A DNA stretch of 64,000 bases, taken from an uncultured Acidimicrobiales bacterium. Lineage in GTDB: Bacteria; Actinomycetota; Acidimicrobiia; Acidimicrobiales; SZUA-35. Under the pieces are notes generated by a model, which had not been told where the DNA came from, ran no database searches, and worked only from the letters and a program-made list of their open reading frames with translations. Positions 1 through 26,284 of the stretch are shown in pieces. Positions within the stretch are counted from its first letter, which is position 1, and every line of letters starts with the position of its first letter. The stretch covers positions 8,588-72,587 of the forward strand of contig CALIFY010000041.1 of the NCBI GenBank assembly GCA_938021675.1, in the 5' to 3' direction. The position numbers and the translations under genes are program-made.

Positions 1-740
1 TCACGAAGAAACTCGACGGCAACCTTCGCTGCGTCAACCTTCGAGCCTGGAGCGTCGATCCACATGACCGGCACCTCAGTAACTTTTAGTTCGAACTTGG
101 CGGCTAGGTAGAGGATCTCGAGATCGAAAGAGAACTCGTCGATGAGCTGTCGGCGAAACAACAGGTGAGCGGCGTCGGAGGTAAACATCTTGAACCCGCA
201 CTGGGTGTCCGAAACCGACACCCGGAAGAGCCCACGGACGATGAGGCTGAGCCCAGCGCTGAATATCTTCCTGCTCAACGATTTGTTCGCTACTTCGGCC
301 CCGGCCGCAGCACGAGAGCCGACCACGACGTCGAATCCGCTCGCCAGCTCGTCGGCCAACGCTTCAAACTGCTCGATCGGCGTCGATTGATCGGCGTCGG
401 CGAACAAGATGATGTCGCCCTTGGCGGCCAGAACGGCCCGGCGCACCGCGCTTCCTTTTCCACCGTTTTTCTCGGCGATGAGGAGACGCAAATTCACAAG
501 CCCAAGGTCGTCGACGAGTTCAACCGTGGAGTCTGAACTGCCGTCGTCGGCGACGATGAGCTCCCACGGCTCACCGAGCGCGCTCATGTGGGTGGCGATA
601 GCACCAATGGTGGGAACGATCCGCCACTCTTCGTTGTAGGCAGGGATTACCACCGAGTAGCGAGGAGACCCGGTCAAAGGAGTGGCAGCCCACTCTCGGT
701 ATGAACTGAGCTTCGTGTCGTTCATCACCGCTTCTTCCAT
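1..740 (-). CDS. Family-2 (GT-A) glycosyltransferase, polyprenol-phosphate-sugar synthase-like; C-terminus cut by window edge
   Basis: Absent from the ORF track because there is no stop inside the window. My minus-strand translation (codons at 3n..3n+2) reads ...RYSVVIPAYNEEWRIVPTIGAIATHMSALGEPWELIVADDGSSDSTVE...IAEKNGGKGSAVRRAV...IDAPGSKVDAAKVAVEFLR, a classic GT2 N-terminal fold with an acidic DxD-type motif. In-frame ATGs lie at 740 and 725; the first is 13 nt after the flippase stop. Confidence 0.8.
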   Translation of the reverse strand, partial: MEEAVMNDTKLSSYREWAATPLTGSPRYSVVIPAYNEEWRIVPTIGAIATHMSALGEPWELIVADDGSSDSTVELVDDLGLVNLRLLIAEKNGGKGSAVRRAVLAAKGDIILFADADQSTPIEQFEALADELASGFDVVVGSRAAAGAEVANKSLSRKIFSAGLSLIVRGLFRVSVSDTQCGFKMFTSDAAHLLFRRQLIDEFSFDLEILYLAAKFELKVTEVPVMWIDAPGSKVDAAKVAVEFLR

Positions 741-753: not shown

Positions 754-2115
754 TCATGTAGTCGCCTTTTCTCTAACTGCCTCGTGGTTCTCGGCGTGTC
801 CGGCCGGTCCGGTACGACGGGCCCCGATGGCATGACTGACACCAACTGCCGCGAGGAGAATCGCCATCGCCCCCACCTGGGCCTCGATCAACGAGTCGAT
901 GTCGTCACGACCGAGAAAGAGCAATGTGGTTTGGATACCACTGCCGGCGAGGAGCACAAGCGCCTCACGGAGCCGTCCCATCGACAGATGGTGGGTGACG
1001 ATCAGGTTGGCCATGGCGAACAGAGATGTAGCGAACGCATACCGCGCCAACGGACCTGACACCTCAGCGTATTCCGGCCCAAAGACCCGGCCGAGTACGA
1101 TGCCGCCGAGCAGGGCGGCCCCGGCGACAAACCCGGCACCCATGAGCGCCACGATGCCGAGACCTCCGTAGAGCAGGCCATGAGAACTCTGCCCAAGCTC
1201 GTCCCGTCGTGCCGCGGCTGGAAAGAGGGTCGTGGCCACCGACCATGACAGAAAAAAGACGGCCCGGCCGACCAGCGCGATCGCCGCATAAACCCCCGCC
1301 GTATCGGGATCAAGAAATCGCTTTGCAATAAGTACGTCGCCGTTATTGATGACGATCTGGCCAAAGAGGAGCACGGCCACCGGACCGACGTAGCTGACGA
1401 GGACTGACACCGCTTGAGCGGTCATCGGTTCAGGTCGACGCCGCCCGATCAGAAGACGAACATGAATCCAAACGGCGAAGAACGACGCCGTAAGCCCGAC
1501 CGTCGCACCGCCGACCCCAAACCCTAAGGCGACAAGGCCGATTCCGGTGGCCACTCGAACCACCATCTCAACGATGAAGGTTGCGGCCAACGGCCGGAAG
1601 GTCAAATGGCCCTGGAGTACCCCGCGTCCAACCGCTTGGACCAGATAGAACGGCATGCCGATCCCGAGGATGACGAACGGCCAGGCCGACGCGGAGTTGA
1701 AGAACTCCCTCCAGAAAGACGCCCCACCGATCAACACGACCGCGACGATCGTGCCCGCCACCAGCGCTCGACGCTCAAGCCATCCGGCCAACGCATCGGT
1801 GGCGGCCCGGTCGGCGGCCACGGCGTTGATGCCGGCAAATCGGGCAGCGATCAGCTGCAGGCTGATCGCTATCGCCGTGACCAGCAGCATGATCGTGACC
1901 ATCAAGTTGGCATCGGCAAACTCTGCCGGGGTCAGCCATCGGCCAAGGAACACGTTGAGCAAGTAGTTGCCGGCATTGGCGATAATCATCGCCACGCCGA
2001 GGGCGGCGCCTCCCGCCATGAGCTTCTTTCCGTCGGTCGACGGCGTATCCGTCGCGACGGAGTCGTCGGCTACCACTTCATCCAAGTTGGCACCGGTACC
2101 CACGCTGCTCGACAC
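754..2115 (-). CDS. MOP-superfamily polysaccharide/oligosaccharide flippase (Wzx/MurJ-like polysaccharide biosynthesis protein)
   Basis: 453-aa ORF with about 12-14 hydrophobic helices (e.g. LMAGGAALGVAMIIANAGNYLLNVFLGRWL). It sits between two glycosyltransferase genes on the same strand. Confidence 0.7.
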   Translation of the reverse strand: MSSSVGTGANLDEVVADDSVATDTPSTDGKKLMAGGAALGVAMIIANAGNYLLNVFLGRWLTPAEFADANLMVTIMLLVTAIAISLQLIAARFAGINAVAADRAATDALAGWLERRALVAGTIVAVVLIGGASFWREFFNSASAWPFVILGIGMPFYLVQAVGRGVLQGHLTFRPLAATFIVEMVVRVATGIGLVALGFGVGGATVGLTASFFAVWIHVRLLIGRRRPEPMTAQAVSVLVSYVGPVAVLLFGQIVINNGDVLIAKRFLDPDTAGVYAAIALVGRAVFFLSWSVATTLFPAAARRDELGQSSHGLLYGGLGIVALMGAGFVAGAALLGGIVLGRVFGPEYAEVSGPLARYAFATSLFAMANLIVTHHLSMGRLREALVLLAGSGIQTTLLFLGRDDIDSLIEAQVGAMAILLAAVGVSHAIGARRTGPAGHAENHEAVREKATT

Positions 2116-2122: not shown

Positions 2123-3352
2123 TCAACGCTTCTCGTTCAGCAGCGCGTCGAGATGTATGAGATGCCAGTCGATCACTTCCGCCATAGGGATCCCGGTGGC
2201 GGCCAGATAGTTCCGTGTTCCGTGTTCGGCGTTCAGGCTGGGATCGTCGAGCAGTTTGGCCAACGCGTCGGCAAGGCTCACCGGGTCGCCGGGCTGAAAG
2301 TACTGGCCGATGAACCCCTCTTCTTCTATGACTTCGACGAAATCACCGATTGCCGGAAGTACCGCGCTCCGCCCGTAGGACCCCGCCTGGTGAAGGACTC
2401 CTGAACTTCCCGTCGTAGAGGTATAGGGGAAGGCGGTGACAGCCGATCCAAGGAACAGGTCAGACACGTCTTCCTCTTCGACGTACCCGGTGAAAACGAC
2501 ATTGTCGAGGTCCGAACACTCCGCGGCGACCCTAGCCAAGTATCCGGCCGAGTTCGGGCTGTCGGTGCCGGCGATGACGAGTTCCAAGTCGTCGTACCCC
2601 CGATCGAGCAGGCGGCGGAATGCATCGACGAGCACATCGACGGTCTTGTATGTGCCCCACTTGCCGAACGCCAGGATTTTCCTTGGGCCGTCGGCTGGTG
2701 GACCGAATGCCGGCTCAGCGATTTCCTCGAAACTTCCGTGCGGTGCCAACAGCACGTTGTCGGCGCCGTAGGCGTCGCGCAAGAATTCGACGTAACGGGG
2801 AATGGTAAGAGCGACGTAATCGGTGGCGAGCACAGCTCGGGTGAGAAGCTTGCCGGCGTTGGTCATGACAAAGGCAGTGACCTTGGAGTCGGCAAAGCCT
2901 GCGTCTTGCATATCGACGTTGTCAGCCAAGTTGTGAAGGATGACCGCCGTTGGAATGCCCAACTTCTTCAACATCGCCGGGATCAGAAGGCCAAGGCCAC
3001 CGGGCACACGCCCATCGCCGAACGTCGCGAACTGAAGATTGATGAGCACGGCGTCGACCTTGGCCGCTCGAACCGCTCGAATGAGACGGAGAGGGTTGGT
3101 GACCGAGTTGAACTTCCACGACGCGATGGCCTCCACCTTGTGCTCGTTATTTTCGAGACGGAGGGGAGGCCCTGCATCGGTTTCATCGGCAAAAACCACC
3201 ACAGAGTCGACCCGTGGGTTTTCGGCCAAATGACTGACCAGATGGAAGCCAAACTCGTTGAGACTATTGCGACCGGGCGGGAACGCGGTAAGTACACCGA
3301 TACGTCGCACGGCCGGTGGGGTTGCGACAGCTCTCGAATCATTGGTCATCAC
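2123..3352 (-). CDS. GT-B fold glycosyltransferase, family 4/group 1
   Basis: 409 aa. N-terminus reads RIGVLTAFPPGRNSLNEFGF. C-terminal half reads FTGYVEEEDVSDLFLGSAVTAFPY...SSGVLHQAGSYGRSAVLP, typical of group-1 GTs. The start is GTG 3352 or ATG 3349; both overlap the stop (3349-3351) of the upstream kinase. Confidence 0.8.
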   Translation of the reverse strand: MMTNDSRAVATPPAVRRIGVLTAFPPGRNSLNEFGFHLVSHLAENPRVDSVVVFADETDAGPPLRLENNEHKVEAIASWKFNSVTNPLRLIRAVRAAKVDAVLINLQFATFGDGRVPGGLGLLIPAMLKKLGIPTAVILHNLADNVDMQDAGFADSKVTAFVMTNAGKLLTRAVLATDYVALTIPRYVEFLRDAYGADNVLLAPHGSFEEIAEPAFGPPADGPRKILAFGKWGTYKTVDVLVDAFRRLLDRGYDDLELVIAGTDSPNSAGYLARVAAECSDLDNVVFTGYVEEEDVSDLFLGSAVTAFPYTSTTGSSGVLHQAGSYGRSAVLPAIGDFVEVIEEEGFIGQYFQPGDPVSLADALAKLLDDPSLNAEHGTRNYLAATGIPMAEVIDWHLIHLDALLNEKR

Positions 3353-4320
3353 AAGGAGACCTCCTTCTCCGGAGGATCGAACGATGGGACTCCATGCTTG
3401 ACTAATTCCTCATCGGAAACTCGGGCCGCGACCCGCAACGTGGCGCAGGAGTACGTCTGCCCGTCGCTGCTCACCTCTAGCGTGCCACCAAGGGCGGTAG
3501 CGATGCGGCGGCACAATCCAAGACCCAGACCCAGTCCTCGGCTGGCCCTTGCGGTCGAGTCGTCGAGCATCGAAAAATCGGAAAACAACTCTTCGATTCG
3601 GGCCGGATCGATTCCGGGACCTGAATCTCGAACGGTCAATTCCAACAGATCATGATCGAGACGTATCTCGACCCGAACCGCCCCCGACGAAGCGTGAGCC
3701 AACGTGTTGTCGAGCAGCTCATCGACGATCTGCAACACTCGACCATCGTCGATTTCTATGAGGCGATCGTCGAGGAACGAGGTAACGGTCAGCAACTGCC
3801 CACCCCGCATGGCGGGACGCTGCCAACGATCGCGAATCGACTCGGCGAGGTCGGCGGCGGCCAGGATCCTCAGCTCTGGAACCAGGCGTCCGGTATCCAG
3901 GTCGACAAGGTCGAGCAATCGGGCGAGGAGCTGATGTAGTCGGTCTGCTGACTGGCGAGCCGTTTTCAGGTAGGTGTGGGGTTGCTCCCCGTCGACATAT
4001 GGTGCGAGTAGCTCAAGCATCCCGAGAATGCCGTTCAAGGGTGTTCGCATTTCGTGGCTCAACGTGGCGAGGAATCGCTCCCGTGACGTCGATGCGACCT
4101 TGAGCATGGCCAGTGTCTCTTCAAGGTCTGCGGTCCGTTCATCGACGCGAGCATCGAGACTCTGATTTATTAGCCAAAGCTCGCGCATACCCCGGTCGGC
4201 GATCTCTTCAGCCTGGCGACGGGCCCGCCGTTCCCTGGCCAAACGATGTTCAAGCCGAGCGATCCGCTGTTCTGGCTGCCGTGTACCGGCGGTTTCGGAG
4301 ACGCCCGGGGGTTTCGACAT
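3349..4320 (-). CDS. Soluble sensor histidine kinase without sensory domain (HnoK-like, H-NOX-associated)
   Basis: 323 aa with a coiled-coil N-terminus and H-box FLATLSHEMRTPLNGILG. ATPase boxes are LLDNTLAH, RDSGPGIDP and GLGLGLGL. No TM or ligand domain is visible. It starts 6 nt after the H-NOX stop. Confidence 0.85.
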   Translation of the reverse strand: MSKPPGVSETAGTRQPEQRIARLEHRLARERRARRQAEEIADRGMRELWLINQSLDARVDERTADLEETLAMLKVASTSRERFLATLSHEMRTPLNGILGMLELLAPYVDGEQPHTYLKTARQSADRLHQLLARLLDLVDLDTGRLVPELRILAAADLAESIRDRWQRPAMRGGQLLTVTSFLDDRLIEIDDGRVLQIVDELLDNTLAHASSGAVRVEIRLDHDLLELTVRDSGPGIDPARIEELFSDFSMLDDSTARASRGLGLGLGLCRRIATALGGTLEVSSDGQTYSCATLRVAARVSDEELVKHGVPSFDPPEKEVSL

Positions 4321-4326
4321 CGCCGA

Positions 4327-4878
4327 CTAGTTCGATTGGTCGGCCATCTTGACCGCTCGGACATCGAAGACGGTGACTTCCTCATCCAACCCGCTGATGA
4401 TCGTGACCTCTACGTGCTCCCCGAAGCGGTCACCGGCCCCCAGTATGAGGCCTTCGGCCAACACGCCAAGCTTGCGAGCCGATTTGTATGTGATCCGCAG
4501 GACATCGTCGGACAGGTCTTCGAATTCGAAGGAAGGCGGCTTGGCATCAGGATGAAGCTTCAGCACCTCGGGGTGAATGATGTCGTTGACACGACGGAGA
4601 AAGTCGTGGGTTCCAGTGGCCTCATCCACCAGCTCCGGGTATCGGTCGGCGAGATGAGGGAATGCATGCCGTCCCAGGACCCTGATCAGTTCGTGGGGCT
4701 CGTGACCGGTCATAGGACAGGCGGCACCCACGAGCGCGCCGAGGTCGGCGTCGTCGTAGCTCCCAAGCGCGGTGTAATGCCCATCGAGCTTCGCCGCGTC
4801 GAGAAGGTCATCCCAGGTGTCTTCGTCATAGAGGCGGACGACGGCTTCTTCGACCGCGTTGAAAATTACGCCCTTCAT
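4327..4878 (-). CDS. H-NOX (heme nitric oxide/oxygen-binding, HNOB) domain protein
   Basis: 183 aa. It starts MKGVIFNAVEEAVV, like characterised proteobacterial H-NOX (MKGIIFN...). Proximal-His context is VNDIIHPEV, and the heme-propionate motif Y-x-S-x-R is present as YKSAR. This is followed by LAEGLILGAGDRF, matching the AEGLLFGAAQHF region of Shewanella-type H-NOX. Confidence 0.85.
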   Translation of the reverse strand: MKGVIFNAVEEAVVRLYDEDTWDDLLDAAKLDGHYTALGSYDDADLGALVGAACPMTGHEPHELIRVLGRHAFPHLADRYPELVDEATGTHDFLRRVNDIIHPEVLKLHPDAKPPSFEFEDLSDDVLRITYKSARKLGVLAEGLILGAGDRFGEHVEVTIISGLDEEVTVFDVRAVKMADQSN

Positions 4879-6815
4879 GAGATCTCTCTTTTCTTGTCGA
4901 CGGTTCGCCGTTCGGTCAGTAACTCTGTACGCATTTCGTCGAGTTCGACCATGGCCCTATCGGCCTGTGCCAGGAGGGGTCCAAGCAGTTCGGATGATGT
5001 CTGGGCATCGCCGTCCGCGGCCTCGAAGTCGGCACACCGCGCCGACAACTCGGACGCGCCAAGCAAGGCGGCCGTCGACTTCAGCGTGTGAGCAGCTCGA
5101 CGTGCCGTGGCGAAATCGTGCGACGCTACCCCATCGGTCAGCTGCGATCGCCACGCCGGCAGCTCGTCAAGAAATGTCGAGATCACGGTGGCAACGACGT
5201 CGGGATCACCCAGTTCGGCGATGAGACGATCGACAACGGTCTGTTCCACCGCGGCCGGGGCTGCGATCGGATCCGGTGCGACGTCCGACCATCGGTCGAT
5301 CATTGTTTCCAACTCGGTAAGCGACACAGGCTTCGGGAGGTAGTCGTCCATTCCAGCATCGAGACACGTCTCTCGATCACCGGCCATGGCACTGGCTGTC
5401 GTGGCAATGATGGGAATCCGCTCTCCGGCCGACTCTTGCCCACGGATCCGACGGGTGGTGTCGAGCCCGTCCATATGGGGCATATGCCAGTCCATGAGGA
5501 TGATGTCAAAGCGTTCAACCGCAAGGATCTCCAACGCATCCGATCCGGAGCTCACCGTGGTTGGCATATGGCCGAGACGTTCGAGTTGGCTACTTGCCAG
5601 CATCAAATTCACTGCGCTGTCATCGACCACCAGCACGCTGAGGCCGCCCGAGTCACGACGCATCGGACGCTCGGTAACCACGGCACGATCGCTGGTTCGC
5701 TTGGCCTTCTCGAACGGAATGGTCGCCACAAATCTGGTTCCGTCCCGGCCGGTATCGAACGTCAGGCCGCCGTTCATGAGCTCGACCAAGCGTTTGGTTA
5801 TTACAAGCCCAAGTCCGGTGCCCTTCGTCGTGTCCTCAGGCCTGGCCTGTCGGTACGGTTCAAAGAGCGTGGGCCACGACGTCTCTGGAATCCCGGGACC
5901 CGTGTCGGCAACGGCAAACTCGGTTGAGAAGCCATCGATCTGCCGGACGCGAAGCTCGACCTTGCCTTCCTCGGTGTACTTGATGGCGTTTGATACCAGG
6001 TTCACCAAGATCTGACGGAGTCGGTGTTCATCGCCAAGAACGACCAACGGCACTGACGGGTCGATCGATACCGAGAAGCCGAGGCCTTTTTTTCTTGCGT
6101 CGGCGCCGTGGGATTCTGCTACCGCGTCGGCCACCGCACCCGGCGACAGGGGCTCGGACAGTAGCTCCAAACGATTGGCGCTGATCTTGGAGAAGTCCAG
6201 CAACTCGTCGAGCATGACCCGAAGCGCGTTCGACTCGCGGCCGATCAGTTGGAGATGTCGTTCGGTCGCAGAATCGATGAGCGGAGAGGCGAGCATCAGT
6301 TCTGCCACACCCATGATCGCATGCAACGGACTCCGCATCTCATGGCTCAGGCCGGCGATAAATAGCGCTCGTTCGGCCAGGGCCGCCTCAAGTTCGCTCC
6401 GACGTTCATCGCGTTCGATCCGGGCTCGGACTTCATCATCGATGGGCCGAGCCGTGATCACGATCCCGGCGATGTCCGGATCGTCGAGACGATTGACGGC
6501 CTGATAGCCGACATGTCCGTATGACCCGTCGGGGCGACGGAGCCGTGTTTCACCGCTCACAGATCGGAGCGGCTCGGCCAGCACGTCGACCAGGCCCGAT
6601 TCGATCGAGGGGCGGTCGTCGGGATGGACGAGAGCGAAGAGGTCGGCATCGTCCCAGAACGTCGAGTCGTAGCCGAGATCGCCTCGTGACCGGGCACTTG
6701 TCCAAATCGGCGCGCCTGCAGCATCGACGACGGTCACGGTGTCTTGGATGTTCTCGATGAGCTTCCGGTACCGGCGTTCATGTCCGGTGGAGGCTTCGTG
6801 GGCAGCTTCGACCAC
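4875..6815 (-). CDS. Hybrid sensor histidine kinase: PAS - HisKA - HATPase_c - REC - HPt
   Basis: 646 aa. PAS-like N-terminus (RYRKLIENIQDTVTVVD...). H-box GLSHEMRSPLHAIMG. G-boxes DTGPGIPE and GTGLGLVI. Receiver reads VLVVDDSAVNLML...IILMDWHMPHMDG...LPKP. C-terminal HPt reads AHTLKSTAALLG. Its stop overlaps the H-NOX ATG (ATGA at 4875-4878). Confidence 0.9.
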   Translation of the reverse strand: MVEAAHEASTGHERRYRKLIENIQDTVTVVDAAGAPIWTSARSRGDLGYDSTFWDDADLFALVHPDDRPSIESGLVDVLAEPLRSVSGETRLRRPDGSYGHVGYQAVNRLDDPDIAGIVITARPIDDEVRARIERDERRSELEAALAERALFIAGLSHEMRSPLHAIMGVAELMLASPLIDSATERHLQLIGRESNALRVMLDELLDFSKISANRLELLSEPLSPGAVADAVAESHGADARKKGLGFSVSIDPSVPLVVLGDEHRLRQILVNLVSNAIKYTEEGKVELRVRQIDGFSTEFAVADTGPGIPETSWPTLFEPYRQARPEDTTKGTGLGLVITKRLVELMNGGLTFDTGRDGTRFVATIPFEKAKRTSDRAVVTERPMRRDSGGLSVLVVDDSAVNLMLASSQLERLGHMPTTVSSGSDALEILAVERFDIILMDWHMPHMDGLDTTRRIRGQESAGERIPIIATTASAMAGDRETCLDAGMDDYLPKPVSLTELETMIDRWSDVAPDPIAAPAAVEQTVVDRLIAELGDPDVVATVISTFLDELPAWRSQLTDGVASHDFATARRAAHTLKSTAALLGASELSARCADFEAADGDAQTSSELLGPLLAQADRAMVELDEMRTELLTERRTVDKKREIS

Positions 6816-6933
6816 GGGTTCATCAGTCCTTATCTGGTCGATTGCCTCTCCTATCGACCAGGCACACTCGATCGTGAGCCGACCGGTGGTTCAATCGATC
6901 TACGTTCCGGCTCGATACTGCCGATTGAAAGCG

Positions 6934-9900
6934 GTGTCGACGCCTCCACCCGACGCAGCAGTCTCCGTCCCGCCGGCTGGTCTCCCCGTCGCCAGCCGGT
7001 CATCGGCCGCGCCAGCGGACGGGCCTATCGAGGCCGATCCAACGAAGACCGGGCGTATCCCGGTCCGGTTGTGGTGGGCGCTCGCCTTGGTCGTGTTGTT
7101 CCACGGCGGCCTGTTGCTGGCGGGAACTTTTCGGGGCACGTACGACGCCTACGTCCATATCTTCCTCGGCGACCATTACGCCCGAGGCTGGTTTTCGACT
7201 TGGGACCAGCGCTGGTACACCGGGTTCACGACCGTGTCGTACCCGCCCGGCACCCACATGTCGATCGCTGCACTTTCCGGAGTGACGGGAAGCCTCGAAA
7301 CCGCCTTCGTGATCGTGCAGTTGGCGTCGCTTCTACTCTTGACGGTTGGTGTCTACCGATTCAGTCGTCTCTGGGTCGACGATGACGTGGCGGCCAACGC
7401 CTCGTTGCTGTTGGTTGTGTCCTCCGCTATCGCCCAGACCGTTCACCTCTACGGCCAGTTACCCACCACGTTTGCCTTAGCGTTCTTGTTGAATGCGCTC
7501 CCCTCGATCCGCAAGTGGGTGTTCGAGGGCCGGTATGTCGATCTGTTCGTCGGCACGATCGTGTTGGCGGCCTGCACCGCCGGGCATCACGTCACCACCT
7601 TGTTTGGGTCCGTGTTCTTTCTCGGCCCGGTGCTCGTGGCGGGGTTGCTCTCCCAATCTCGGGTCGCCCGTGATGGCGAAATCGAAGCGTTCGACCCGGC
7701 CATCGAACGGCAAACCATCGGTCCTTTGGTGGCCCGTCGTCTCCGCAGGGTGTGGCCGGCCGTGATCCGAGGCGGAATCCTCGGGCCTTGCATCTTGGCC
7801 GCGCTCGTCGTCGTGGTGTTGCCGTACTGGATCTGGAGCGGGTCTGATCCGATCACCCAGATTCCCATTCCCCACGGGAGCCGAGCGAACTTTCTGGCCG
7901 ACCTCAATATCGGACTGATCTTCTTCTTCATCCCCTGGGGTTTGATGCTCCCCGTCTTGCCCTACGCCCTCATTCGTGCCGTCGTCGACCGAATGTGGCC
8001 ACTCGCAGCGTCAATCCTTCTCCTGTTCGTTCTCGGCAGTGGGGGCACGACACCGCTACCCAAGATTCTGCTAAGGGCAGCGTTTGACATTTTGACGCTG
8101 GACCGCTTCACGTTTTGGGCCACAATTCAGATCTTGCCGTTGGCCGGACTCTTCGTGAAGAGTCTCGAGGACGGATCAATCGCCGGTTGGTTCCGGCGGA
8201 CCGGCGGACCGGTGCTCCTCCGGACAGCCCAGGTTGGATTCATCGGGTCGATGCTCGCGCTCTGCCTCTTTTCGGCATCGTTGGCCCGATTCCGGCCCTT
8301 CCAACCAGACTCGATCGACCCCGACCCCATCGTTGCCTTCATGGAGAAAGATCAACACGAGCGATGGCGATTCCTTACCCTCGGGTTCGGGGATCAAATG
8401 GCTTGGCTGTCGGCGCAAACCACCGCTACCCAAGTCGATGGCAACTACCACTCCGTGCGTCGGCTACCGGAACTGACCTCTACGTCGGTCGAACGTCTCG
8501 AAGGGGCGAAGTACCGAGGGATTTCCGGCCTCGGTTCGCTCCAGCAATTCCTCGAAGTACCGGAGAAATATCACCTCAAGTACGTCTTTTCCAACGACGC
8601 GTTTTATGACCCATTGCTTCATTTCCTCGGTTGGCAAGAGCTCGGCCCCTTGGAGAACGGCATCGTCGTCTGGGAAAAGGGAGACATCGCTCCACTCCCG
8701 TCGGTGCTCCCCACCCGGGAAGTCCCCAGTTGGCAACGATTCATGTGGGGAACGGTTCCCCCGACCATGATCGTGTCGGCGTTGATTCTTCTCACATGGT
8801 CGGCGATCGGACGGCCCGGTCTCCGGACACCGGTCCGGCCTCCACACACCGCGATACTCATCGGGCCTGCGGCATGGATCGATCGGCGACTGCAACGTCG
8901 AGCGTCTCTCCTTTCCCCGGCTGGAGGGCGGCGTACAGCGTCGGCAGGTACCGAACGGTGGGGTGTCGTCGTCCTTGGTCGCGTTCGTCGCAGATTGCAT
9001 CGTCGCGTCGGGCCGCGGCGCCGATTGGGGCGAATGGTGGCATTGACGGCAGTTATCGGGCTGCTCCCGATCAGTGGCCTCGTCGGCGGGTCGACGTCGG
9101 CCGATCCGACCGATGTCGTCGAGTCTTACTACGACCACCTCGACTTCAGACGATGGGAGGCAGCGTATGACCTCCTCGATCCAATCACCCGACCGAACTA
9201 TGAACTTTGGCGACTACAAATCTCTGTCGAAGGAGGTCTCGTCGCCAGTTACGCAAAACTCGATTCTTTTACCGCCCGCCGCCTGAACGACGGCGCACCA
9301 CACAACGGCATACCCACCGACGCCGACGTAGACGACGTTGGGCGCAATCGCCAGGGTGACCGATCCACCGTCCGTGTCGATGTGCGGTACTTGACCGCGC
9401 TCGACTGGTACTCGGTGCAACGTGACCACGAGATCGTCGAGCGCGACGGATCGTGGTTTCTCGTGGCCGATGAGCCTGACCTCACAGTTCCCCCCGATCA
9501 GCTGGTCCGTAGACCCACCGTCGACTATCTGATCCAGGGTCGGCGACGCGTCACGTCGCTGACCAGTGAACTCACCGACATTCAAGACCGGCCCGAGCTG
9601 GCGATTGACGGTGCCAAGCTCGTCGAACGCCGTGGGCTGCCGGTGGTCGTCGGGGAGGTAGCAAACGTCGATGTCGATCCGGCCGATATCACGCTCACCG
9701 CGGTGCTGCGCAACGACGATGAGGAGGTCGTTGCCAGGTACAACGCAACCGACCACCTGATGAGAACACTCAACCCCGGGGAGTCATCGCCGTTTCGCAT
9801 CGAGTTCGAGGAGGTGGCAGCGGGGACGAACCTCGACTTCAACCCATTGGATTTCAGTCCGATCGAGCTCGACGACGAGATCGTATCGGTCGAGCTGTAT

Positions 9901-10329
9901 GCAAAGGCGGTGGTCACCCAGAAAGGTCTGTATCGGGGGGTGCAGTTGAACTCGCTGGACCTGATCGAACTCGATGACGGAAGCCACGTACTCCGCGGCG
10001 AGGTGCGAAACGATGGCGTTGTCGAGGCCGTGATCCCGATGGCCTTGATCAGCTTTCTCGATGAGTCCGGAGAGGTTGGATGGGTCGAGCGGGTATACCT
10101 CGATACGGCGATCCGGTCGCAACGGGCCAGCGACTTTCGCTACGAGTTACCTTCGCTCGATGACATCGATCCCGTCGACATAGACATCTCGGTCTTCGCC
10201 AACGGCAGTGATCGGCAGCGTGTCACCAGCGACCGCTCGACGGGCGATATCGCCGCCCCGACCGACTCGCCGTTCGCTTCGATCGGCATCGACCTCGTGA
10301 CGATGGTTCCGCCAGGAACACCGGGATGA
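6934..10329 (+). CDS. Very large polytopic membrane protein, GT-C-like/YfhO- or PTPS-related-like N-terminal half plus about 430-aa extracytoplasmic C-terminal domain
   Basis: The track ORF starts at 6739 but overlaps the divergent kinase gene. In-frame GTG 6934 (or TTG 6925) precedes the first helix (RLWWALALVVLFHGGLLLAG). The first-loop motif YDAYVHIFLGDHYARGWFSTWDQRWYTGF and more than 12 helices resemble GT-C type glycosyl/arabinosyl transferases. A further anchor (MVALTAVIGLLPISGLVGG) precedes a soluble domain. The functional call is tentative. Confidence 0.5.
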   Translation: MSTPPPDAAVSVPPAGLPVASRSSAAPADGPIEADPTKTGRIPVRLWWALALVVLFHGGLLLAGTFRGTYDAYVHIFLGDHYARGWFSTWDQRWYTGFTTVSYPPGTHMSIAALSGVTGSLETAFVIVQLASLLLLTVGVYRFSRLWVDDDVAANASLLLVVSSAIAQTVHLYGQLPTTFALAFLLNALPSIRKWVFEGRYVDLFVGTIVLAACTAGHHVTTLFGSVFFLGPVLVAGLLSQSRVARDGEIEAFDPAIERQTIGPLVARRLRRVWPAVIRGGILGPCILAALVVVVLPYWIWSGSDPITQIPIPHGSRANFLADLNIGLIFFFIPWGLMLPVLPYALIRAVVDRMWPLAASILLLFVLGSGGTTPLPKILLRAAFDILTLDRFTFWATIQILPLAGLFVKSLEDGSIAGWFRRTGGPVLLRTAQVGFIGSMLALCLFSASLARFRPFQPDSIDPDPIVAFMEKDQHERWRFLTLGFGDQMAWLSAQTTATQVDGNYHSVRRLPELTSTSVERLEGAKYRGISGLGSLQQFLEVPEKYHLKYVFSNDAFYDPLLHFLGWQELGPLENGIVVWEKGDIAPLPSVLPTREVPSWQRFMWGTVPPTMIVSALILLTWSAIGRPGLRTPVRPPHTAILIGPAAWIDRRLQRRASLLSPAGGRRTASAGTERWGVVVLGRVRRRLHRRVGPRRRLGRMVALTAVIGLLPISGLVGGSTSADPTDVVESYYDHLDFRRWEAAYDLLDPITRPNYELWRLQISVEGGLVASYAKLDSFTARRLNDGAPHNGIPTDADVDDVGRNRQGDRSTVRVDVRYLTALDWYSVQRDHEIVERDGSWFLVADEPDLTVPPDQLVRRPTVDYLIQGRRRVTSLTSELTDIQDRPELAIDGAKLVERRGLPVVVGEVANVDVDPADITLTAVLRNDDEEVVARYNATDHLMRTLNPGESSPFRIEFEEVAAGTNLDFNPLDFSPIELDDEIVSVELYAKAVVTQKGLYRGVQLNSLDLIELDDGSHVLRGEVRNDGVVEAVIPMALISFLDESGEVGWVERVYLDTAIRSQRASDFRYELPSLDDIDPVDIDISVFANGSDRQRVTSDRSTGDIAAPTDSPFASIGIDLVTMVPPGTPG

Positions 10330-11567
10330 CATCCCGCAACCGCATCAAACTGGGAAACGTTGCGGTCGCCGGATTGAGTCTGGCCACCCTCGTCGCCGTG
10401 GGGGTGTGGCTCGACAGGTCCGTTTACTCCGATGAGCCAGTCGCTCCTCCCGTCGTCATCGAGGGGACGCTCACGGTCGACGCCCCGAGCTCGGCGGTTG
10501 CGGGCGAACCCTTTCTGGTTTCCCTTTCCGGAGAGTACGAGGGCGAAATCGCTTCGCTGGTGATCGACGGAGGGTACGGGCAACGAAACCTCAGCGCGAT
10601 CATGACCGATGGCGTCGCCACCTTCGAGGTCCCGCCTTGGCCTCACCCCGAGTCTGGTTTGGTGCTTCTTGAGGCATCCGTTGGCCTGGCCCAAACCACC
10701 GCCACGATGGAGATCGCCCCCGGCCCGGCTACCGACCCGCTCGATATTTACCTGGGGCCTCGAACCGTCGTCGCCGATGCCAACGACTTCTCGATGGCGG
10801 TCGCTATTCCCAAGGATCGGTACGGAAATCCAGTATCGGAAGGAACGCCAGTCGATTTCTCGGTCAATCGGTCCTCGGGCACGTCGGCAACACAAGCGGC
10901 GCCAACCAGCGGTCTGCTGGCCTCGGTCGAGATCTGGTCACGGACCCGTGCGGGGCGAACTCGAGTCGGCGCCAGCGTTGGGGCCGCGAAGGGACCGGAA
11001 CGTTCCTTTCTCGAAGTCGCTGGGGTTCCCGTCGCCTTCGATCTGGGGTCGACCGATCCCGCCCCCACCGCCGACGGCTCTACGTTGTTTGAGGTATGGA
11101 CCGACGTCCTGCACGACGAGTTTGGCAATGTCGTTCCCGACGGCACGGTCGCCTACCTACGAGCGGCGGGGTCGACGAGCAATCGGCGGCTCCGGGGGAC
11201 TTCGATCGACGGCGTGGTGACCTTTGTCGTCGAAGCACCGGCCGAACCAGGTCCGGCGACGTTCGTTGCCAGCGCGAGCGGTGTGGCCAGTGAATCGTTG
11301 ACCATCGACTTCTCCGCCGCCGTCGCCCGGGCTCCGGTCACCGTCTCGGACCACGACGATGGCGTACACGTCGAAATCGGACGGGTCGTCGGCACAACCG
11401 GCAGCTACGTGCCGGACGGGACAGTCGCCTTGATCAACGTCGAAGACACGGTCTACTCGGTGGAGCTCGAACTCGGCCGAGGGTCGGTTGTCGTACCGCC
11501 GTTTGACGGAACCCCCTCGGTCTCTATTCTCGGTGTCGGTGCCACGTCGATCGAGGATGCCAGATGA
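10326..11567 (+). CDS. Membrane-anchored/secreted protein with repeated bacterial Ig-like (Big_1/invasin-like) domains
   Basis: 413 aa. N-terminal anchor is VAVAGLSLATLVAVGVWL. Recurrent motifs include KDRYGNPVSEGTPVDFSV, HDEFGNVVPDGTVAYL and GSYVPDGTVALINV. ATGA overlap with the upstream gene. Confidence 0.6.
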   Translation: MTSRNRIKLGNVAVAGLSLATLVAVGVWLDRSVYSDEPVAPPVVIEGTLTVDAPSSAVAGEPFLVSLSGEYEGEIASLVIDGGYGQRNLSAIMTDGVATFEVPPWPHPESGLVLLEASVGLAQTTATMEIAPGPATDPLDIYLGPRTVVADANDFSMAVAIPKDRYGNPVSEGTPVDFSVNRSSGTSATQAAPTSGLLASVEIWSRTRAGRTRVGASVGAAKGPERSFLEVAGVPVAFDLGSTDPAPTADGSTLFEVWTDVLHDEFGNVVPDGTVAYLRAAGSTSNRRLRGTSIDGVVTFVVEAPAEPGPATFVASASGVASESLTIDFSAAVARAPVTVSDHDDGVHVEIGRVVGTTGSYVPDGTVALINVEDTVYSVELELGRGSVVVPPFDGTPSVSILGVGATSIEDAR

Positions 11568-12319
11568 CACCCAACGGTCGGTCTCTGCTTCGTCGGCTGA
11601 GGCCCACTCCGTCGGGGCGTGCCGATTCCCGGGCGGCGAGATCCGACGAACCGATCCTCACCGCTATCGGCGGGCGGCAGCGAAAGAAGCTACTGGTCAG
11701 GCTCGGCCTTGCCGGGATCGTTGGGTCGGTTGCCTTGTTCGTTGTCGTCACGTCGGCGGGAATCATGGCTTCGATCACCCAAGCCGAGGAAACGTCGGAG
11801 ATCTTTACCGAAGCGGCTGAGCTGCCGCCCGATCTCATCGACGCCGTCACCTGGCACCCCGATGGTGAAGACCTCCCGAGAGAAATGGAGCCGCTAACCC
11901 GAGAAGCCGTCACCGCGGCCTGGCTTCGTGGCTGGGAACAGCTCCGTATCGTGGCAGAGACCGGTGATACCTCAGGGGTTGAGGTCAACTTCTCCAACTC
12001 GGCTCGACGTGGTGTCCTCGAACAGGCCGACAATTGGAACGGGAGATCCGTGCAACAACTTGGCCATGACCTGGCCCTCACCTTCTACTCCGAAGACGGC
12101 CAGGTCGTCGGGCTTCGGGCGGTCGAAAGTCGATTGAAGAGGACCAAGCATGTCGGCGAGGTCAAGCTTGGGCGGGAAACCGAAGAAAGATACGACGCTG
12201 TTCTCATTCTCGAAGATGGGAATTGGCGAATCCAGCATTGGGTCCGGCGCTCGTTCGCCGGCGAACCATGGGTGGTCGAAACGCTCGACCCCGGTCGGGT
12301 CGCCCCGGTCGACCACTAG
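11564..12319 (+). CDS. Membrane-anchored hypothetical protein (possible NTF2/SnoaL-like extracytoplasmic domain)
   Basis: 251 aa. Arg-rich N-terminus, one TM (LGLAGIVGSVALFVVVTSAGIMA), and a C-terminal region ...YDAVLILEDGNWRIQHWV. ATGA overlap with the upstream gene. Confidence 0.5.
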   Translation: MTPNGRSLLRRLRPTPSGRADSRAARSDEPILTAIGGRQRKKLLVRLGLAGIVGSVALFVVVTSAGIMASITQAEETSEIFTEAAELPPDLIDAVTWHPDGEDLPREMEPLTREAVTAAWLRGWEQLRIVAETGDTSGVEVNFSNSARRGVLEQADNWNGRSVQQLGHDLALTFYSEDGQVVGLRAVESRLKRTKHVGEVKLGRETEERYDAVLILEDGNWRIQHWVRRSFAGEPWVVETLDPGRVAPVDH

Positions 12320-22708: not shown

Positions 22709-23476
22709 TCAGCGAATGATCCAGTAAATGATAGCTAGCAACAAGGCGACACCGCCGGCGGCCGGGAGCGCCCGTTTAACCATCGCACCCTGCGAGACTT
22801 CAAACAGGTCGACCGGTTCGGCTTCAGGTCCTTCGATCTTTCGCACGCCGCTCGCCGAGTTGGTGCGGTTCTCCGCTCCTTCGACCAAGTCGTTGACCGC
22901 TGCAGGCGCAGAACCGACGGCGGCGGCTTCGGTCCCGGCAGAGGCCGCCGGCTCCGAGCCGACCACGCTGGCTTGGGTCGGATCGGCACCGGTCTCCGTC
23001 GTGGGAGACGCCTGTTCACCGCCGTCGTCCCCACCGGCTTCAAGCTTCGCCCGAAGATTCTCGGTGAACTGGTTGAGGATCTTCTTCGATATATCTTCGA
23101 TGGCGCCCCGACCGAAGCTGGCGATCTTGCCGCTGAGCCCGAGGTCGGTGTGGATCTTGACGTTGGTCTGCGAATCGCCGACCGGTGTCATCTCAGCGGT
23201 AACCAGCGCGTTAGCGTTGCCTTGCCGTGGGTCGCGACCCTCGGCCTTTAGCCGGGCGACCTTCTTGACAGCGTCTTGTTCGATAAATGACGCCTTGCCC
23301 TTGTAGTTGGCGGTGATCGGGCCAACCTTGATCTTCACCAGGCCGCGGTACACCTCACCCTCGATCTCGGTGAGTTGGGCACCGGGCATACAAGGGGCGA
23401 TGAACTCGAGATCGTTGAGTATCCGCCAGGTCTCCTCAACGTCCCGATCGATCACAAACTCGTTCGTCAACTCCAT
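22709..23476 (-). CDS. coxG: CoxG-like SRPBCC protein with Ala/Glu-rich linker and C-terminal membrane anchor
   Basis: 255 aa. It starts MELTNEFVIDRDVEETWRILNDLEFIAPCMPGAQL...KVGPITANYKGKASF. The C-terminal helix is ALPAAGGVALLLAIIYWII. Confidence 0.75.
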   Translation of the reverse strand: MELTNEFVIDRDVEETWRILNDLEFIAPCMPGAQLTEIEGEVYRGLVKIKVGPITANYKGKASFIEQDAVKKVARLKAEGRDPRQGNANALVTAEMTPVGDSQTNVKIHTDLGLSGKIASFGRGAIEDISKKILNQFTENLRAKLEAGGDDGGEQASPTTETGADPTQASVVGSEPAASAGTEAAAVGSAPAAVNDLVEGAENRTNSASGVRKIEGPEAEPVDLFEVSQGAMVKRALPAAGGVALLLAIIYWIIR

Positions 23477-24060
23477 TGCTGGAGATCCTCCAGGGTGTCT
23501 ATGTCAACGGGATTTCCATTGCACGGTATCTCGGAAACTAGCTCAGGTCTCATCCGCAACAGTGTTCTCGCACCATCATCACCTGTTCTCGGGAGTGCAG
23601 GCCACACCGAACGGTCGAGCTTGACCGGCGGTCGGCGATGACCATCGAAGGTGGCGGTAACGACGTCGCCGGCAGCTGCTCCAACCGATCGCCACGCTGT
23701 CGCCGGCACCAAAGGTTGGTCGCCCAACCCGACAACGATGGCACGGTGACCGGCCGCCGACGCGGTATCGACCGCCAACGCAAGCGACGTAGCCTGCCCA
23801 TCGGCCCACCGTCGATTTCCCAACACCGTGGCCGAATCTCCTGCCACGTCGCCAACCAACTCGGTCAGATCGACAGCGCCGGTCACGACATAGAGCTCGT
23901 TGAATCCGGCGGCGATCGCCGCGGTGATGGCCCAGGTGACGAGCGGACGACCCCGGAAGTCGGCGGTGAGTTTGTGAGCGTTGTCGTCTGACCCCGATGA
24001 ACGGAATCGTCGCCCCTCTCCGGCGGCAAGGACTACCCCAGCAATCGTCATCGTTGACAA
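23467..24060 (-). CDS. MobA/MocA-like molybdenum cofactor nucleotidyltransferase
   Basis: 197 aa. Motifs are GVVLAAGEGRRF and VGLGDQPLV. Confidence 0.7.
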   Translation of the reverse strand: MSTMTIAGVVLAAGEGRRFRSSGSDDNAHKLTADFRGRPLVTWAITAAIAAGFNELYVVTGAVDLTELVGDVAGDSATVLGNRRWADGQATSLALAVDTASAAGHRAIVVGLGDQPLVPATAWRSVGAAAGDVVTATFDGHRRPPVKLDRSVWPALPRTGDDGARTLLRMRPELVSEIPCNGNPVDIDTLEDLQQWS

Positions 24061-24102
24061 GTATCAGCCACTGTCAGCATCCACCCTACGGCAGCCCGGC
24101 GC

Positions 24103-24939: not shown

Positions 24940-25250
24940 CAGTCGAGCGGTTCGAGGTAGAGATGGATCGTGCCGCCACAGGTCAACCCGACGGCAAAGG
25001 CTTCATCGTCGGAGTAGCCGAAGGTCACGATTCGACGCAACCCTTCGTCCAAACATTGAAGGGATTCGGCTACGACGGCCCCTTCCACGCAACCGCCGGA
25101 CACCGATCCCGCCACTTCGCCATCTTCGTTGACCGCCATCGCGGCACCGGGCAATCTCGGCCCCGAACCTTCGATGTCGACGACGCGGGCCAACGCGATG
25201 CGTTTGCCTTGGCGCCGCCACCTCGTGAGGTCGCCGAGTATCTCTTTCAT
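24936..25250 (-). CDS. XdhC/CoxI N-terminal-domain-only protein (104 aa)
   Basis: Only the last 104 codons of track ORF 24936..25688 look real: MKEILGDLTRWRRQGKRIALARVVDIEGSGPRLPGAAMAV...GSVSGGCVEGAV. ATG at 25250. ATGA-type overlap with the next gene. Confidence 0.65.
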   Translation of the reverse strand: MKEILGDLTRWRRQGKRIALARVVDIEGSGPRLPGAAMAVNEDGEVAGSVSGGCVEGAVVAESLQCLDEGLRRIVTFGYSDDEAFAVGLTCGGTIHLYLEPLDW

Positions 25251-25339
25251 CTTAGACAGTCTACCGATGGGGGTTGAGGGCCAGAAATCGAGGGCGGGAT
25301 AGCCACCGACCGCGAAGCGAACCAACCGACGTCGCCGCT

Positions 25340-26257: not shown

Positions 26258-26284
26258 CCCCTTGGGTCTGTGGCACCAAGCGAC

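Follow-up and report, generated by a model that had tools for sequence, protein, structure and literature searches.

Introduction

Signalling through H-NOX (heme NO/O2-binding) proteins is known almost entirely from Proteobacteria, together with one domain from a Firmicute and the protein of Nostoc. In Shewanella oneidensis (So) and S. woodyi (Sw) the sensor is a stand-alone protein of about 180 aa, and its gene is directly followed by that of a soluble kinase without a sensor domain, HnoK. The Tar4 H-NOX of Caldanaerobacter (Thermoanaerobacter) tengcongensis (Tt) instead binds O2 and is joined, as a domain, to a methyl-accepting chemotaxis protein; H-NOX of the HaCE type, as in Legionella and S. 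woodyi, adjoins a c-di-GMP enzyme with GAF, GGDEF and EAL domains. A pathway with another NO sensor is that of Pseudomonas aeruginosa, where NosP, a FIST-family protein, is co-cistronic with the hybrid kinase NahK and the signal runs to HptB, HsbR and HsbA; a receiver-controlled PP2C phosphatase/RsbW-type kinase there acts on a STAS anti-anti-sigma factor and switches the cell between motile and biofilm life. In Vibrio harveyi and V. parahaemolyticus H-NOX is paired with the hybrid kinase HqsK, which signals to the HPt protein LuxU (PMC8738867). The same review, from 2022, gives the precedent for H-NOX inhibiting adjacent kinases, mentions uncharacterised homologs in Acidimicrobiaceae, Nocardioidaceae, Micrococcaceae and Mycobacteriaceae, and flags the uncharacterised actinobacterial H-NOX as an open area (PMC8738867).

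Our literature search found no paper on H-NOX in Acidimicrobiia, and no characterised example from Gram-positives/Actinomycetota or with partner switching, publications later than the review included. The original prediction, that no H-NOX from a high-G+C Gram-positive lineage has been characterised, is in line with the review (PMC8738867) and with our search. Proteins of this kind in MAGs are named "heme NO-binding domain-containing protein" by NCBI, and since homologs in the phylum have already been reported and the proteins already annotated, the novelty of the gene by itself is modest. The flanking kinases and glycan genes, a context that the prediction left aside, are the more informative part, and the two-kinase/partner-switch wiring that the sequences suggest is the more interesting one.

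The H-NOX gene and its host

In the window, by which we mean the whole 64-kb stretch of DNA that was analysed, the gene lies on the minus strand at 4327..4878 and encodes a stand-alone sensor protein of 183 aa, identified with Pfam, phmmer, alignment, AF2 and Foldseek. The original prediction had read H-NOX features in an ORF of this length without giving its strand, and every motif that it quoted is present, namely MKGVIFNAVEEAVV at residues 1-14, NDIIHPEV with His102, YKSAR (Y131-S133-R135) and LAEGLILGAGDRF at residues 140-152. One distance has to be corrected, as YKSAR was placed about 35 residues past the histidine and Y131 actually comes 29 residues after His102. The motif set is far above chance expectation. 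The Pfam family that had been proposed, HNOB (PF07700), matches strongly (E=1.7e-36, 126.1 bits, cutoff 25.5) and over its full length, aligning residues 2-159 to positions 1-162 of the 163 in the profile, and a search of NCBIfam gave no model matching the protein. Against the PDB, phmmer found H-NOX of S. woodyi (6ocv, 7.7e-24) and S. oneidensis (4u99/2kii, ~1e-18), and more weakly Nostoc H-NOX (4e-14), sGC beta1 (2e-8) and Tt H-NOX (1e-6). Values of dN/dS against relatives are about 0.04-0.15, which are rough since dS is saturated, and the gene is under strong purifying selection.

A longer plus-strand ORF of 281 aa (4246..5091) overlaps the gene in antisense, and crude GC3-based gene calling favoured it over the H-NOX gene. 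The Pfam match and all 465 homologs lie in the minus-strand frame, for which reason we rejected the antisense ORF as a high-GC artefact; the GC3 preference is an artefact as well, since this ORF shares third-codon positions with the real gene (GC3 0.73). The gene is an intact, canonical H-NOX gene of an Acidimicrobiales bacterium, and judged from the sequence and the predicted structure its product is likely to be a functional heme protein.

The closest relatives, at most 86% identical and syntenic over about 10 kb, are all from MAGs deposited as Acidimicrobiales, and the window holds the chromosomal housekeeping genes enolase, mfd, pth and L25, which fits the actinobacterial-type chromosome that had been predicted; a survey of homologs, suggested at the same time, places the closest of them in Acidimicrobiia. 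The host is an uncultured marine-type actinobacterium. A rough, unbootstrapped NJ tree gives the window protein a clade of Actinomycetota only, mostly Acidimicrobiia, down to about 45% identity. The sister clade, with the actinobacterial loci L019 and L031, Sphingomonadales and Cupriavidus among its members, has a GAF-GGDEF-EAL protein encoded behind H-NOX. A recent horizontal transfer is unlikely, as the GC and GC3 of the operon match those of the window and the clade stays solely actinomycetotal to that identity in the NJ tree.

Heme site and predicted fold

We made the reference alignment with MAFFT and counted conservation over 120 relatives. His102 aligns with H103 of So and H102 of Tt in pairwise as well as multiple alignments, and against the verified sequences of Tt (1u4h) and Nostoc (Ns; 2o09) the residues H102, P115, Y131, S133, R135, G69 and G143 are invariant. 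The Y131-S133-R135 motif is common to Tt, Ns, So and Sw, and together with His102, Pro115 and the glycine hinges Gly69/Gly143 it is kept in 120/120 relatives, where G147 is likewise invariant. The proximal histidine and the YxSxR motif accordingly fall on the heme-pocket positions of So and Tt H-NOX, as the original prediction had supposed. The AF2 model (pLDDT 87.2, pTM 0.84) has helices and four strands, and in Foldseek it matches all solved bacterial H-NOX structures with TM 0.79-0.88; the predicted model reaches 0.87-0.88 to 4iae and 4u99, and 0.81 to 1u4h. The structure prediction that had been proposed thus returns an H-NOX fold, modelled as a helical distal subdomain, a proximal helix and a four-stranded antiparallel sheet. 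Alignment and model together show what is predicted to be a complete heme-binding apparatus, with His102 as axial ligand, Y131-S133-R135 as propionate clamp, Pro115 and the Gly69/Gly143 hinges.

Ligand class

The distal pocket is apolar: W9, N74 and Y140 of Tt align with V9, A72 and L140, and the Tt-type network of a distal Tyr140 with Trp9 and Asn74 is absent from the window protein. Among the 120 relatives position 140 is Leu in 112, Met in 5 and Phe in 3, and never Tyr. Losing the distal Tyr abolishes stable O2 binding in H-NOX, and this established knowledge bears directly on the reading of the protein as an O2 sensor like the Thermoanaerobacter/Caldanaerobacter domain, which would form a stable Fe(II)-O2 complex and report oxygen tension to the kinases. 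The fold and the heme ligands are shared with Tt H-NOX, and the PAS domain in the upstream kinase is of a type often used for O2 or redox sensing, but all three distal hydrogen-bonding residues have become apolar (W9V, N74A, Y140L), 0/120 relatives have the Tyr, and both sequence and structure are nearer the NO-selective proteins of So, Sw and Ns than that of Tt, which makes an O2 sensor very unlikely. The inspection of the pocket for a Tyr/Trp/Asn network, which the original prediction had left for later, favours the non-O2-binding, NO/CO-type reading.

The three cysteines of the zinc motif, part of the site through which the Vibrio and Shewanella proteins sense redox state independently of heme, are absent too, and at the equivalents of So C139/C164/C172 the window protein has G138/G163/T169; its sole cysteine is C54, and it has no zinc site. 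A redox or oxidant sensor could work through oxidation of the heme iron or through a heme-independent thiol switch like that of V. cholerae (Vc) H-NOX. Zinc-thiol sensing is described for Vc H-NOX, three-cysteine motifs occur in SSN groups 2-4, and actinobacterial sequences fall in group 3 (PMC8738867). Cysteines at 138/163/169 are indeed found in 11/120 of the relatives and in the sister clade. All 18 closest relatives, however, share the Gly/Gly/Thr of the window protein, and with these residues at the motif and a single cysteine a thiol switch is structurally impossible in this protein. Oxidation of the heme iron has no specific support as the signal, and we regard a redox sensor as unlikely.

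Sensing of CO in connection with carbon-monoxide metabolism, where CO on the ferrous heme would report its availability, agrees with the solved Fe(II)-CO structures of H-NOX (2kii, 6ocv) and with the CoxG-, XdhC- and CoxM-like genes 18-22 kb off in the window. These genes, however, neither belong to nor adjoin the operon and are missing from the conserved H-NOX neighbourhood of the relatives, and the 64-kb window yielded no catalytic large subunit of CODH. No H-NOX is known to serve as a physiological CO sensor, and we dropped the tie to the cox-like genes, which have no conserved linkage to H-NOX; such a role is highly improbable. From the apolar pocket and the lack of a zinc-binding cysteine motif we expect a sensor that works through heme alone, with NO (and CO) as ligands and not O2. 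With a canonical heme site and without a confounding zinc-thiol switch, its response should be purely heme-based.

The operon and its conservation

H-NOX is the second gene of a tightly coupled minus-strand operon in the order hybrid kinase, H-NOX, sensor-less kinase, GT4, Wzx-like flippase and GT2. The soluble hybrid histidine kinase (4875..6815, 646 aa) has PAS, HisKA (H158), HATPase_c, REC (D442) and HPt (H576) domains, and its stop overlaps the H-NOX start (ATGA). The second kinase (3349..4320, minus strand, 323 aa) starts 6 nt past the H-NOX stop; it is soluble and sensor-less, with a coiled-coil N-terminus followed by HisKA (H89) and HATPase_c. Neither kinase has a TM segment, and in both the H, N, G1 and G2 boxes are intact. 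Their NCBIfam matches (TorS, BarA, ArcB, NahK-like and others) all fall well short of the cutoffs and indicate, at the level of sequence, generic hybrid-kinase homology alone. An H-NOX gene in one operon with a kinase lacking a sensor domain is the HnoK/HahK-type arrangement; the 323-aa protein consists only of coiled coil, HisKA and HATPase_c, and by this analogy is a candidate H-NOX-regulated kinase. Overlapping its stop by 4 nt starts a glycosyltransferase (Glycos_transf_1/GT4 in Pfam, weakly EpsE-like, 2123..3352, minus strand, 409 aa), followed on the same strand by a Wzx-like polysaccharide-biosynthesis flippase (Polysacc_synt_3 in Pfam, 754..2115, 453 aa), both conserved, and by a GT2 glycosyltransferase resembling polyprenyl-phosphate sugar transferases, of which the N-terminal ~246 codons (1..740, motif VVIPAYNEE...DDGSSD) are inside the left window edge. 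No GGDEF/EAL gene is found in the window operon, and no NO-producing or NO-detoxifying gene near it.

Facing this operon, across a divergent intergenic region that is presumably the promoter region (6816..7038, approximate boundaries), are three plus-strand genes. The first encodes a large polytopic membrane protein of about 1096 aa (7039..10329); its ORF opens at 6739, and we placed the true start near 7039 because the large protein, where it is complete in relatives, has 1082-1098 aa. Searches of Pfam and NCBIfam gave it no confident family, the sole match being a weak one to PTPS_related (E 0.02), and we infer a candidate extracytoplasmic glycosyltransferase; the gene is divergently transcribed from, and co-conserved with, the H-NOX cluster. 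Its stop is overlapped by the ORF of a conserved Ig-like protein (Big_1/Invasin_D3, 10326..11567, 413 aa) with an N-terminal hydrophobic segment, and the third gene encodes a 251-aa protein (11564..12319) with no confident Pfam or NCBIfam family. The Ig-like gene is conserved in relatives, which also hold genes of similar size where the 251-aa protein is encoded.

As far as the contigs extend, 18/18 of the closest Acidimicrobiales MAGs keep the operon order. The arrangement of H-NOX between hybrid and sensor-less kinase is seen in 16/18 of these close loci as well as in L041, L043 and L051 (it is cut by contig ends in L004, L006 and L012) and in 8/8 of the relatives' neighbourhoods with gene calls, and it persists to an H-NOX identity of about 47%. 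Wherever the contigs of the close loci are long enough, GT4, Wzx and the divergent large membrane protein keep their synteny, and in the rearranged loci L060 and L061 the components, the large membrane protein included, are still linked. Five relatives (L054, L056, L057, L058 and L060) have GT2 after Wzx, and their operon continues GT2-STAS-SpoIIE-HATPase_c_2-STAS-REC. This extension of STAS, PP2C, RsbW-like kinase, STAS and a stand-alone receiver was found in 5/6 relatives whose 10-kb flanks were examined; the H-NOX of those that have it is 58-83% identical to that of the window, which itself ends inside GT2. From the HPt domain to the partner switch, then, the HPt is in the window and the REC, PP2C, RsbW-like and STAS genes are in the relatives' operons only, and HMMs built from the relatives' proteins found no further REC/STAS/PP2C/RsbW copies in the 64-kb window. 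More distant clade members have a convergent OmpR-type regulator in place of the partner-switching module, and the output therefore varies within the clade.

A proposed signalling model and its implications

By analogy with described systems, an NO-gated phosphorelay governing surface glycan or biofilm genes is the most likely role of the locus. The ferrous heme would, like that of characterised family members, bind NO and, less strongly, CO, while O2 would not bind. Binding of NO, probably with release of His102, would shift the two subdomains about the glycine hinges, and NO-bound H-NOX would alter, and most likely inhibit, the autophosphorylation of its partner kinase, as in the family. To judge from the operon, the partner may be the downstream 323-aa kinase, the upstream hybrid kinase or both. 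Phosphate would pass to the receiver (D442) and HPt (H576) of the hybrid kinase, and from there, as far as the relatives suggest, to the stand-alone receiver at the operon end, beside the STAS/PP2C/RsbW-like module. The presumed output is control of the surface-glycan/exopolysaccharide genes that lie within the operon or opposite it, with GT4, the Wzx-like flippase, the polyprenyl-P-sugar-type GT2, the large membrane protein and the Ig-like protein as the putative target set, and the net effect might be an NO-responsive switch between attached and free-living state. Co-transcription with the glycan genes shows co-expression and is not proof that they are a regulated target.

The partner could also be encoded elsewhere, for instance as a diguanylate cyclase or phosphodiesterase, with the flanking kinases as mere neighbours. 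The GAF-GGDEF-EAL gene behind the sister-clade H-NOX does show that the family readily uses c-di-GMP enzymes. Against this, neither the window nor any of the clade's 8 neighbourhoods with gene calls has an adjacent GGDEF/EAL gene, and the translational coupling to both kinases and the preservation of the triad to about 47% H-NOX identity argue for a direct functional linkage, so that a remote partner seems quite unlikely. We consider the model as a whole, from NO-sensing H-NOX through a kinase phosphorelay to a surface-glycan output, to be probable. The more specific proposal is that Acidimicrobiia have a lineage-specific, Cys-less H-NOX whose wiring differs from that of all characterised systems, placed between a sensor-less and a PAS-hybrid-HPt kinase, with a STAS/PP2C/RsbW module gated through a stand-alone receiver, in one operon with glycan genes of polyprenyl-sugar/GT-C type, and this we put forward only tentatively. 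If true, it would be the first pathway from NO via a partner switch to the cell envelope in a Gram-positive phylum, and would give a direct handle on the surface attachment of abundant uncultured marine actinobacteria.

With both candidate kinase partners and the HPt step encoded beside H-NOX, this is a clean candidate locus. NO commonly serves as a signal on the surfaces of algae and animals and in biofilms that cycle nitrogen, and the conserved linkage of H-NOX to genes for glycan synthesis and partner switching hints at a way in which uncultured marine Acidimicrobiia might tie surface colonisation to NO.

Comparison with known systems

The locus adds a new phylum and a new wiring to a known sensor family, and does not overturn current understanding. 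In the phylogeny the closest non-self neighbours are the HaCE-type proteins, including those of the sister clade, with 42-55% identity and the same heme residues; they have the cysteine motif and an adjoining c-di-GMP enzyme, and the clade of the window protein has neither. The domain of C. tengcongensis (1u4h) agrees with the window protein in fold (TM 0.81) and heme ligands, but it is fused and has the W9/N74/Y140 pocket, whereas the window protein is stand-alone and has V9/A72/L140. H-NOX of Nostoc sp. PCC 7120 (2o09, 4iae) is the top structural match (TM 0.87) and has a similar non-O2-binding pocket, whereas identity is 27% and the genomic partners differ.

Shewanella H-NOX with HnoK (4u99, 4u9b, 2kii, 6ocv) is closest by sequence among the PDB entries (E 8e-24 to 6e-18), with 4u99 also among the best structural ones (TM 0.88), at an identity of 29-33% by MAFFT and 24-30% by Foldseek. 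The stand-alone size, the proximal His, YxSxR, Pro and Gly hinges, the apolar distal pocket, and the gene order, with a soluble kinase lacking a sensor domain directly after H-NOX, are all alike. The differences are that So H-NOX has a Cys/His zinc site and the window protein does not, that the window operon adds an upstream hybrid kinase with REC and HPt, and that the host is an actinobacterium and not a gammaproteobacterium. The Vibrio HqsK system resembles the locus in the pairing of H-NOX with a hybrid kinase and in a His-Asp-His phosphorelay downstream of NO sensing; here, in contrast, the HPt is fused to the hybrid kinase, there is an extra plain kinase, and the likely output is not quorum sensing. 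With the pathway of P. aeruginosa, finally, the operons of the relatives have in common that HPt, REC, PP2C, RsbW-like kinase and two STAS proteins are found together. The sensor is H-NOX and not NosP, and the relatives' REC, PP2C and kinase are separate proteins and not a single HsbR fusion; all the components, with the module as known from the relatives' genes, are gathered in one operon with the glycan genes.

Results

The H-NOX gene lies on the minus strand at 4327..4878, exactly where the original prediction had placed a 183-aa open reading frame, and all the motifs quoted there are present in the product: MKGVIFNAVEEAVV at its start, NDIIHPEV (His102), YKSAR (Y131, S133, R135) and LAEGLILGAGDRF. 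The order of the histidine and the Y-S-R motif was also given correctly, but not their distance, which had been put at ~35 residues; Y-S-R begins 29 residues past the histidine. The protein matches the Pfam HNOB profile (PF07700) end to end (profile positions 1-162 of 163, 126 bits against a cutoff of 25.5 bits, E 1.7e-36). When all PDB sequences were searched with phmmer, solely H-NOX proteins were matched below E=0.01, namely those of S. woodyi (6ocv, 7.7e-24), S. oneidensis (2kii/4u99, ~1e-18), Nostoc (2o09, 4e-14), K. algicida (1e-13), human sGC beta1 (2e-8) and Caldanaerobacter tengcongensis (Tt, 1e-6). We aligned the protein with eight relatives and four characterised proteins, of which the Tt and Nostoc references are exact matches to 1u4h and 2o09. 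M1, G3, G69, H102, P115, Y131, S133, R135, G143, L144, G147 and F152 are invariant in this alignment, and the histidine and YxSxR thus align with those of characterised H-NOX proteins; among 120 database relatives, H102, P115, Y131, S133 and R135 are each found in 120/120. An AlphaFold2 model built on the alignment of these relatives is confident (pLDDT 87.2, pTM 0.84) and shows the helices and four-stranded sheet expected of the H-NOX fold, with Foldseek TM scores of 0.87-0.88 on the Nostoc and S. oneidensis crystal structures and 0.81 on Tt H-NOX. Pairwise dN/dS against relatives is ~0.04-0.15, values that are rough as dS is saturated, although the direction is clear. Judged from its sequence, this is an intact gene under selection, and that the protein is a genuine member of the H-NOX family is nearly certain.

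The plus strand carries a 281-aa antisense ORF (4246..5091) that spans the whole H-NOX gene and the kinase junctions; its GC3 is 0.71, that of the H-NOX frame 0.73. It was preferred by a simple, crude GC3-based gene caller, and a naive caller would choose it over the real gene. Since all the homology evidence sits in the minus-strand frame, we reject it as a spurious shadow ORF, the usual high-GC artefact.

H-NOX is the second of six minus-strand genes packed head to tail. Its start overlaps, as ATGA, the stop of a soluble hybrid kinase (4875..6815; PAS-HisKA(H158)-HATPase_c-REC(D442)-HPt(H576)), and a 6-nt gap separates it from a soluble 323-aa kinase (3349..4320), in which a coiled coil alone precedes HisKA(H89)-HATPase_c. 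Neither kinase has a membrane segment, and the catalytic boxes are complete in both. They are followed by a GT4-type glycosyltransferase (4-nt overlap with the kinase), a Wzx/Polysacc_synt_3 flippase (7-nt gap) and, ~14 nt further on, a GT2 gene that resembles those for polyprenyl-phosphate sugar transferases and is cut by the left window edge after its first ~246 codons. Across ~220 bp a second, plus-strand operon faces this one, encoding a polytopic membrane protein of ~1096 aa (ORF 6739-10329, true start probably near 7039), an Ig-like protein with a Big_1/Invasin_D3 match and a 251-aa protein. The membrane protein has no family in Pfam or NCBIfam, the single weak match being PTPS_related (E 0.02). 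Its identity is 59-76% in 15/18 close Acidimicrobiales MAG loci, the three other contigs ending first, and it may be a GT-C-like extracytoplasmic glycosyltransferase that uses the product of the nearby GT2.

The original prediction spoke of an actinobacterial-type chromosome. Among GTDB species representatives the closest 18 loci all belong to MAGs deposited as Acidimicrobiales (H-NOX identity 65-86%) and are syntenic with the window over ~10 kb, with neighbour proteins 45-86% identical. The window also holds chromosomal housekeeping genes (enolase, mfd, pth, ribosomal L25, 2-oxoacid:ferredoxin oxidoreductase and two tRNAs), and the chromosome is therefore rightly called actinobacterial, and more exactly that of an uncultured member of the Acidimicrobiales that is absent from the species representatives; G+C is 61-63% throughout. 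A Hanks-type Ser/Thr kinase (657 aa, 33159-35132, plus) and an FHA-domain protein (523 aa, 50921-52492, plus) represent ordinary actinobacterial signalling that shows no obvious connection to the H-NOX operon. Another candidate adhesin is encoded at 42131-45604 (plus), a surface-type protein of 1157 aa in which three SdrD_B repeats are combined with CarboxypepD_reg/SpaA-like domains. A molybdenum hydroxylase/CO-dehydrogenase-type cluster (22709-27115, minus) has CoxG-like (22709-23476), XdhC-like (24103-24939) and CoxM-like FAD-binding (26285-27115) genes, and between them lies a gene for a periplasmic binding protein; neither a catalytic large subunit nor a 2Fe-2S small subunit was identified among the ORFs scanned.

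As far as the contigs reach, 18/18 of the closest loci have the order large membrane protein, hybrid kinase, H-NOX, kinase, GT4, Wzx. For eight relatives we surveyed the gene neighbourhood, with flanks of 10 kb and precomputed gene calls. In five of them (L054, L056, L057, L058 and L060; H-NOX 58-83% identical) the operon extends beyond GT2 with a STAS protein, a ~400-aa SpoIIE/PP2C phosphatase, a ~137-aa HATPase_c_2 (RsbW-like) kinase, a second STAS protein and a stand-alone receiver of 120-141 aa. The receivers have the acidic pocket, phospho-Asp, T and K residues, and in both STAS proteins the phospho-serine has kept its DS(A/T) context. No additional REC, STAS, PP2C or RsbW-like gene was found elsewhere in the 64-kb window, so for the present locus we infer the downstream relay to lie just beyond it. 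The triad of hybrid kinase, H-NOX and kinase also persists in the more distant L059, L061 and L062 (~51-53% identical), but these have a convergent OmpR-type regulator. In L060 the membrane protein/Ig-like operon is relocated and now co-directional, and in L061 the triad has all of the GT, STAS and membrane-protein genes on its upstream side; the components thus stay linked through rearrangement. The HisKA-HATPase-REC-HPt core of the hybrid kinase is kept in all relatives compared, whereas about half of the close ones either lack PAS or have diverged too far there for an alignment (proteins of 502-537 aa, e.g. L058 8479-9987, L060 8333-9946 and several others, with tblastn matches starting at query residues 127-153), and the PAS input therefore appears dispensable to the system.

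Discussion

In Tt H-NOX, O2 is hydrogen-bonded by W9, N74 and Y140. The aligned residues here are V9, A72 and L140, and the Tyr/Trp/Asn network that the original prediction associated with O2 binding is missing. Residue 140 is Leu in 112, Met in 5, Phe in 3 and Tyr in 0 of the 120 relatives, while residue 9 is overwhelmingly Val and residue 72 Ala or Ser. By the established family rule the pocket is predicted to be of the non-O2-binding, NO (and CO) binding type, like those of S. oneidensis, S. woodyi, Nostoc and sGC. A second sensing mode is known from V. cholerae H-NOX, whose Zn-Cys site forms disulfides (PMC8738867). The window protein differs in having a single Cys, C54, and Gly/Gly/Thr at the Zn-site positions, which rules out redox sensing of that kind; Cys occupies the three positions in 11/120 relatives and in the whole sister clade. 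C54 itself (codon ~4717-4719, minus) is outside the known Zn site, and is Cys in 56/120 relatives and otherwise Ser, Val or Ala.

A rough neighbour-joining tree, made without bootstraps, puts the window protein in a Cys-less clade of Actinomycetota only, mostly Acidimicrobiia. The depth of the Acidimicrobiia clade and the native composition argue against a recent horizontal transfer. The Cys-bearing sister group contains Sphingomonadales, Stellaceae, Cupriavidus and Nitrospiraceae as well as three actinobacterial sequences, from Mycolicibacterium (L038), Solirubrobacterales (L019) and Acidimicrobiia (L031). A GAF-GGDEF-EAL protein directly follows H-NOX in 5/5 sister-group loci tested (H-NOX at ~6001-6540 in L019, L024, L031 and L033, and at 4659-5147 in L020); the Mycolicibacterium locus differs, with a PAS-hybrid kinase-HPt upstream. 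Partner type thus tracks H-NOX lineage, and as L019 and L031 have the GGDEF-EAL wiring, Actinomycetota hold no fewer than two H-NOX lineages that differ in their wiring.

The original prediction, which knew of no characterised H-NOX from a high-G+C Gram-positive lineage, was real and correctly interpreted, and the protein is a textbook H-NOX. MAG relatives are named 'heme NO-binding domain-containing protein' by NCBI, and a 2022 review included Acidimicrobiaceae, Nocardioidaceae, Micrococcaceae and Mycobacteriaceae in its similarity network and noted that no such Gram-positive H-NOX had been reported as NO sensor (PMC8738867); our search of later literature found no newer report. It is therefore an uncharacterised addition to a known family. 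What the present analysis adds is an Acidimicrobiia lineage without the Zn-Cys switch, with a kinase on either side and a link to glycan and partner-switching genes, plausibly a new wiring variant of which a part lies beyond the window. This extends the family to Actinomycetota, which is useful if unsurprising, and an openly flagged gap becomes testable.

By analogy with characterised H-NOX/kinase pairs (PMC8738867), ferrous H-NOX would bind NO, the proximal His-Fe bond would weaken or break, the subdomains would rotate about G69/G143, and the altered surface would change, usually inhibit, autophosphorylation of the partner kinase. We consider an NO-selective heme sensor regulating a flanking kinase the probable function. 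The best candidate for partner is the downstream kinase, since it lacks an input domain and repeats the arrangement of hnoX and hnoK. The hybrid kinase, with a PAS domain that varies among relatives or is missing from them, would provide a REC-HPt conduit and perhaps a second input; its HPt would phosphorylate the stand-alone receiver known from relatives, and this receiver would in turn govern how PP2C and RsbW are balanced on the STAS proteins. The GT4, flippase, GT2, large membrane protein and Ig-like protein suggest that the controlled trait is the production of surface glycan or matrix, although we put forward this partner-switch/glycan output only tentatively. The proposed relay logic mirrors the NosP-NahK -> HptB -> HsbR -> HsbA pathway that governs the motile/biofilm switch of P. 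aeruginosa, with the difference that here the sensor is an H-NOX and the components would be unfused and all in one operon with glycan genes.
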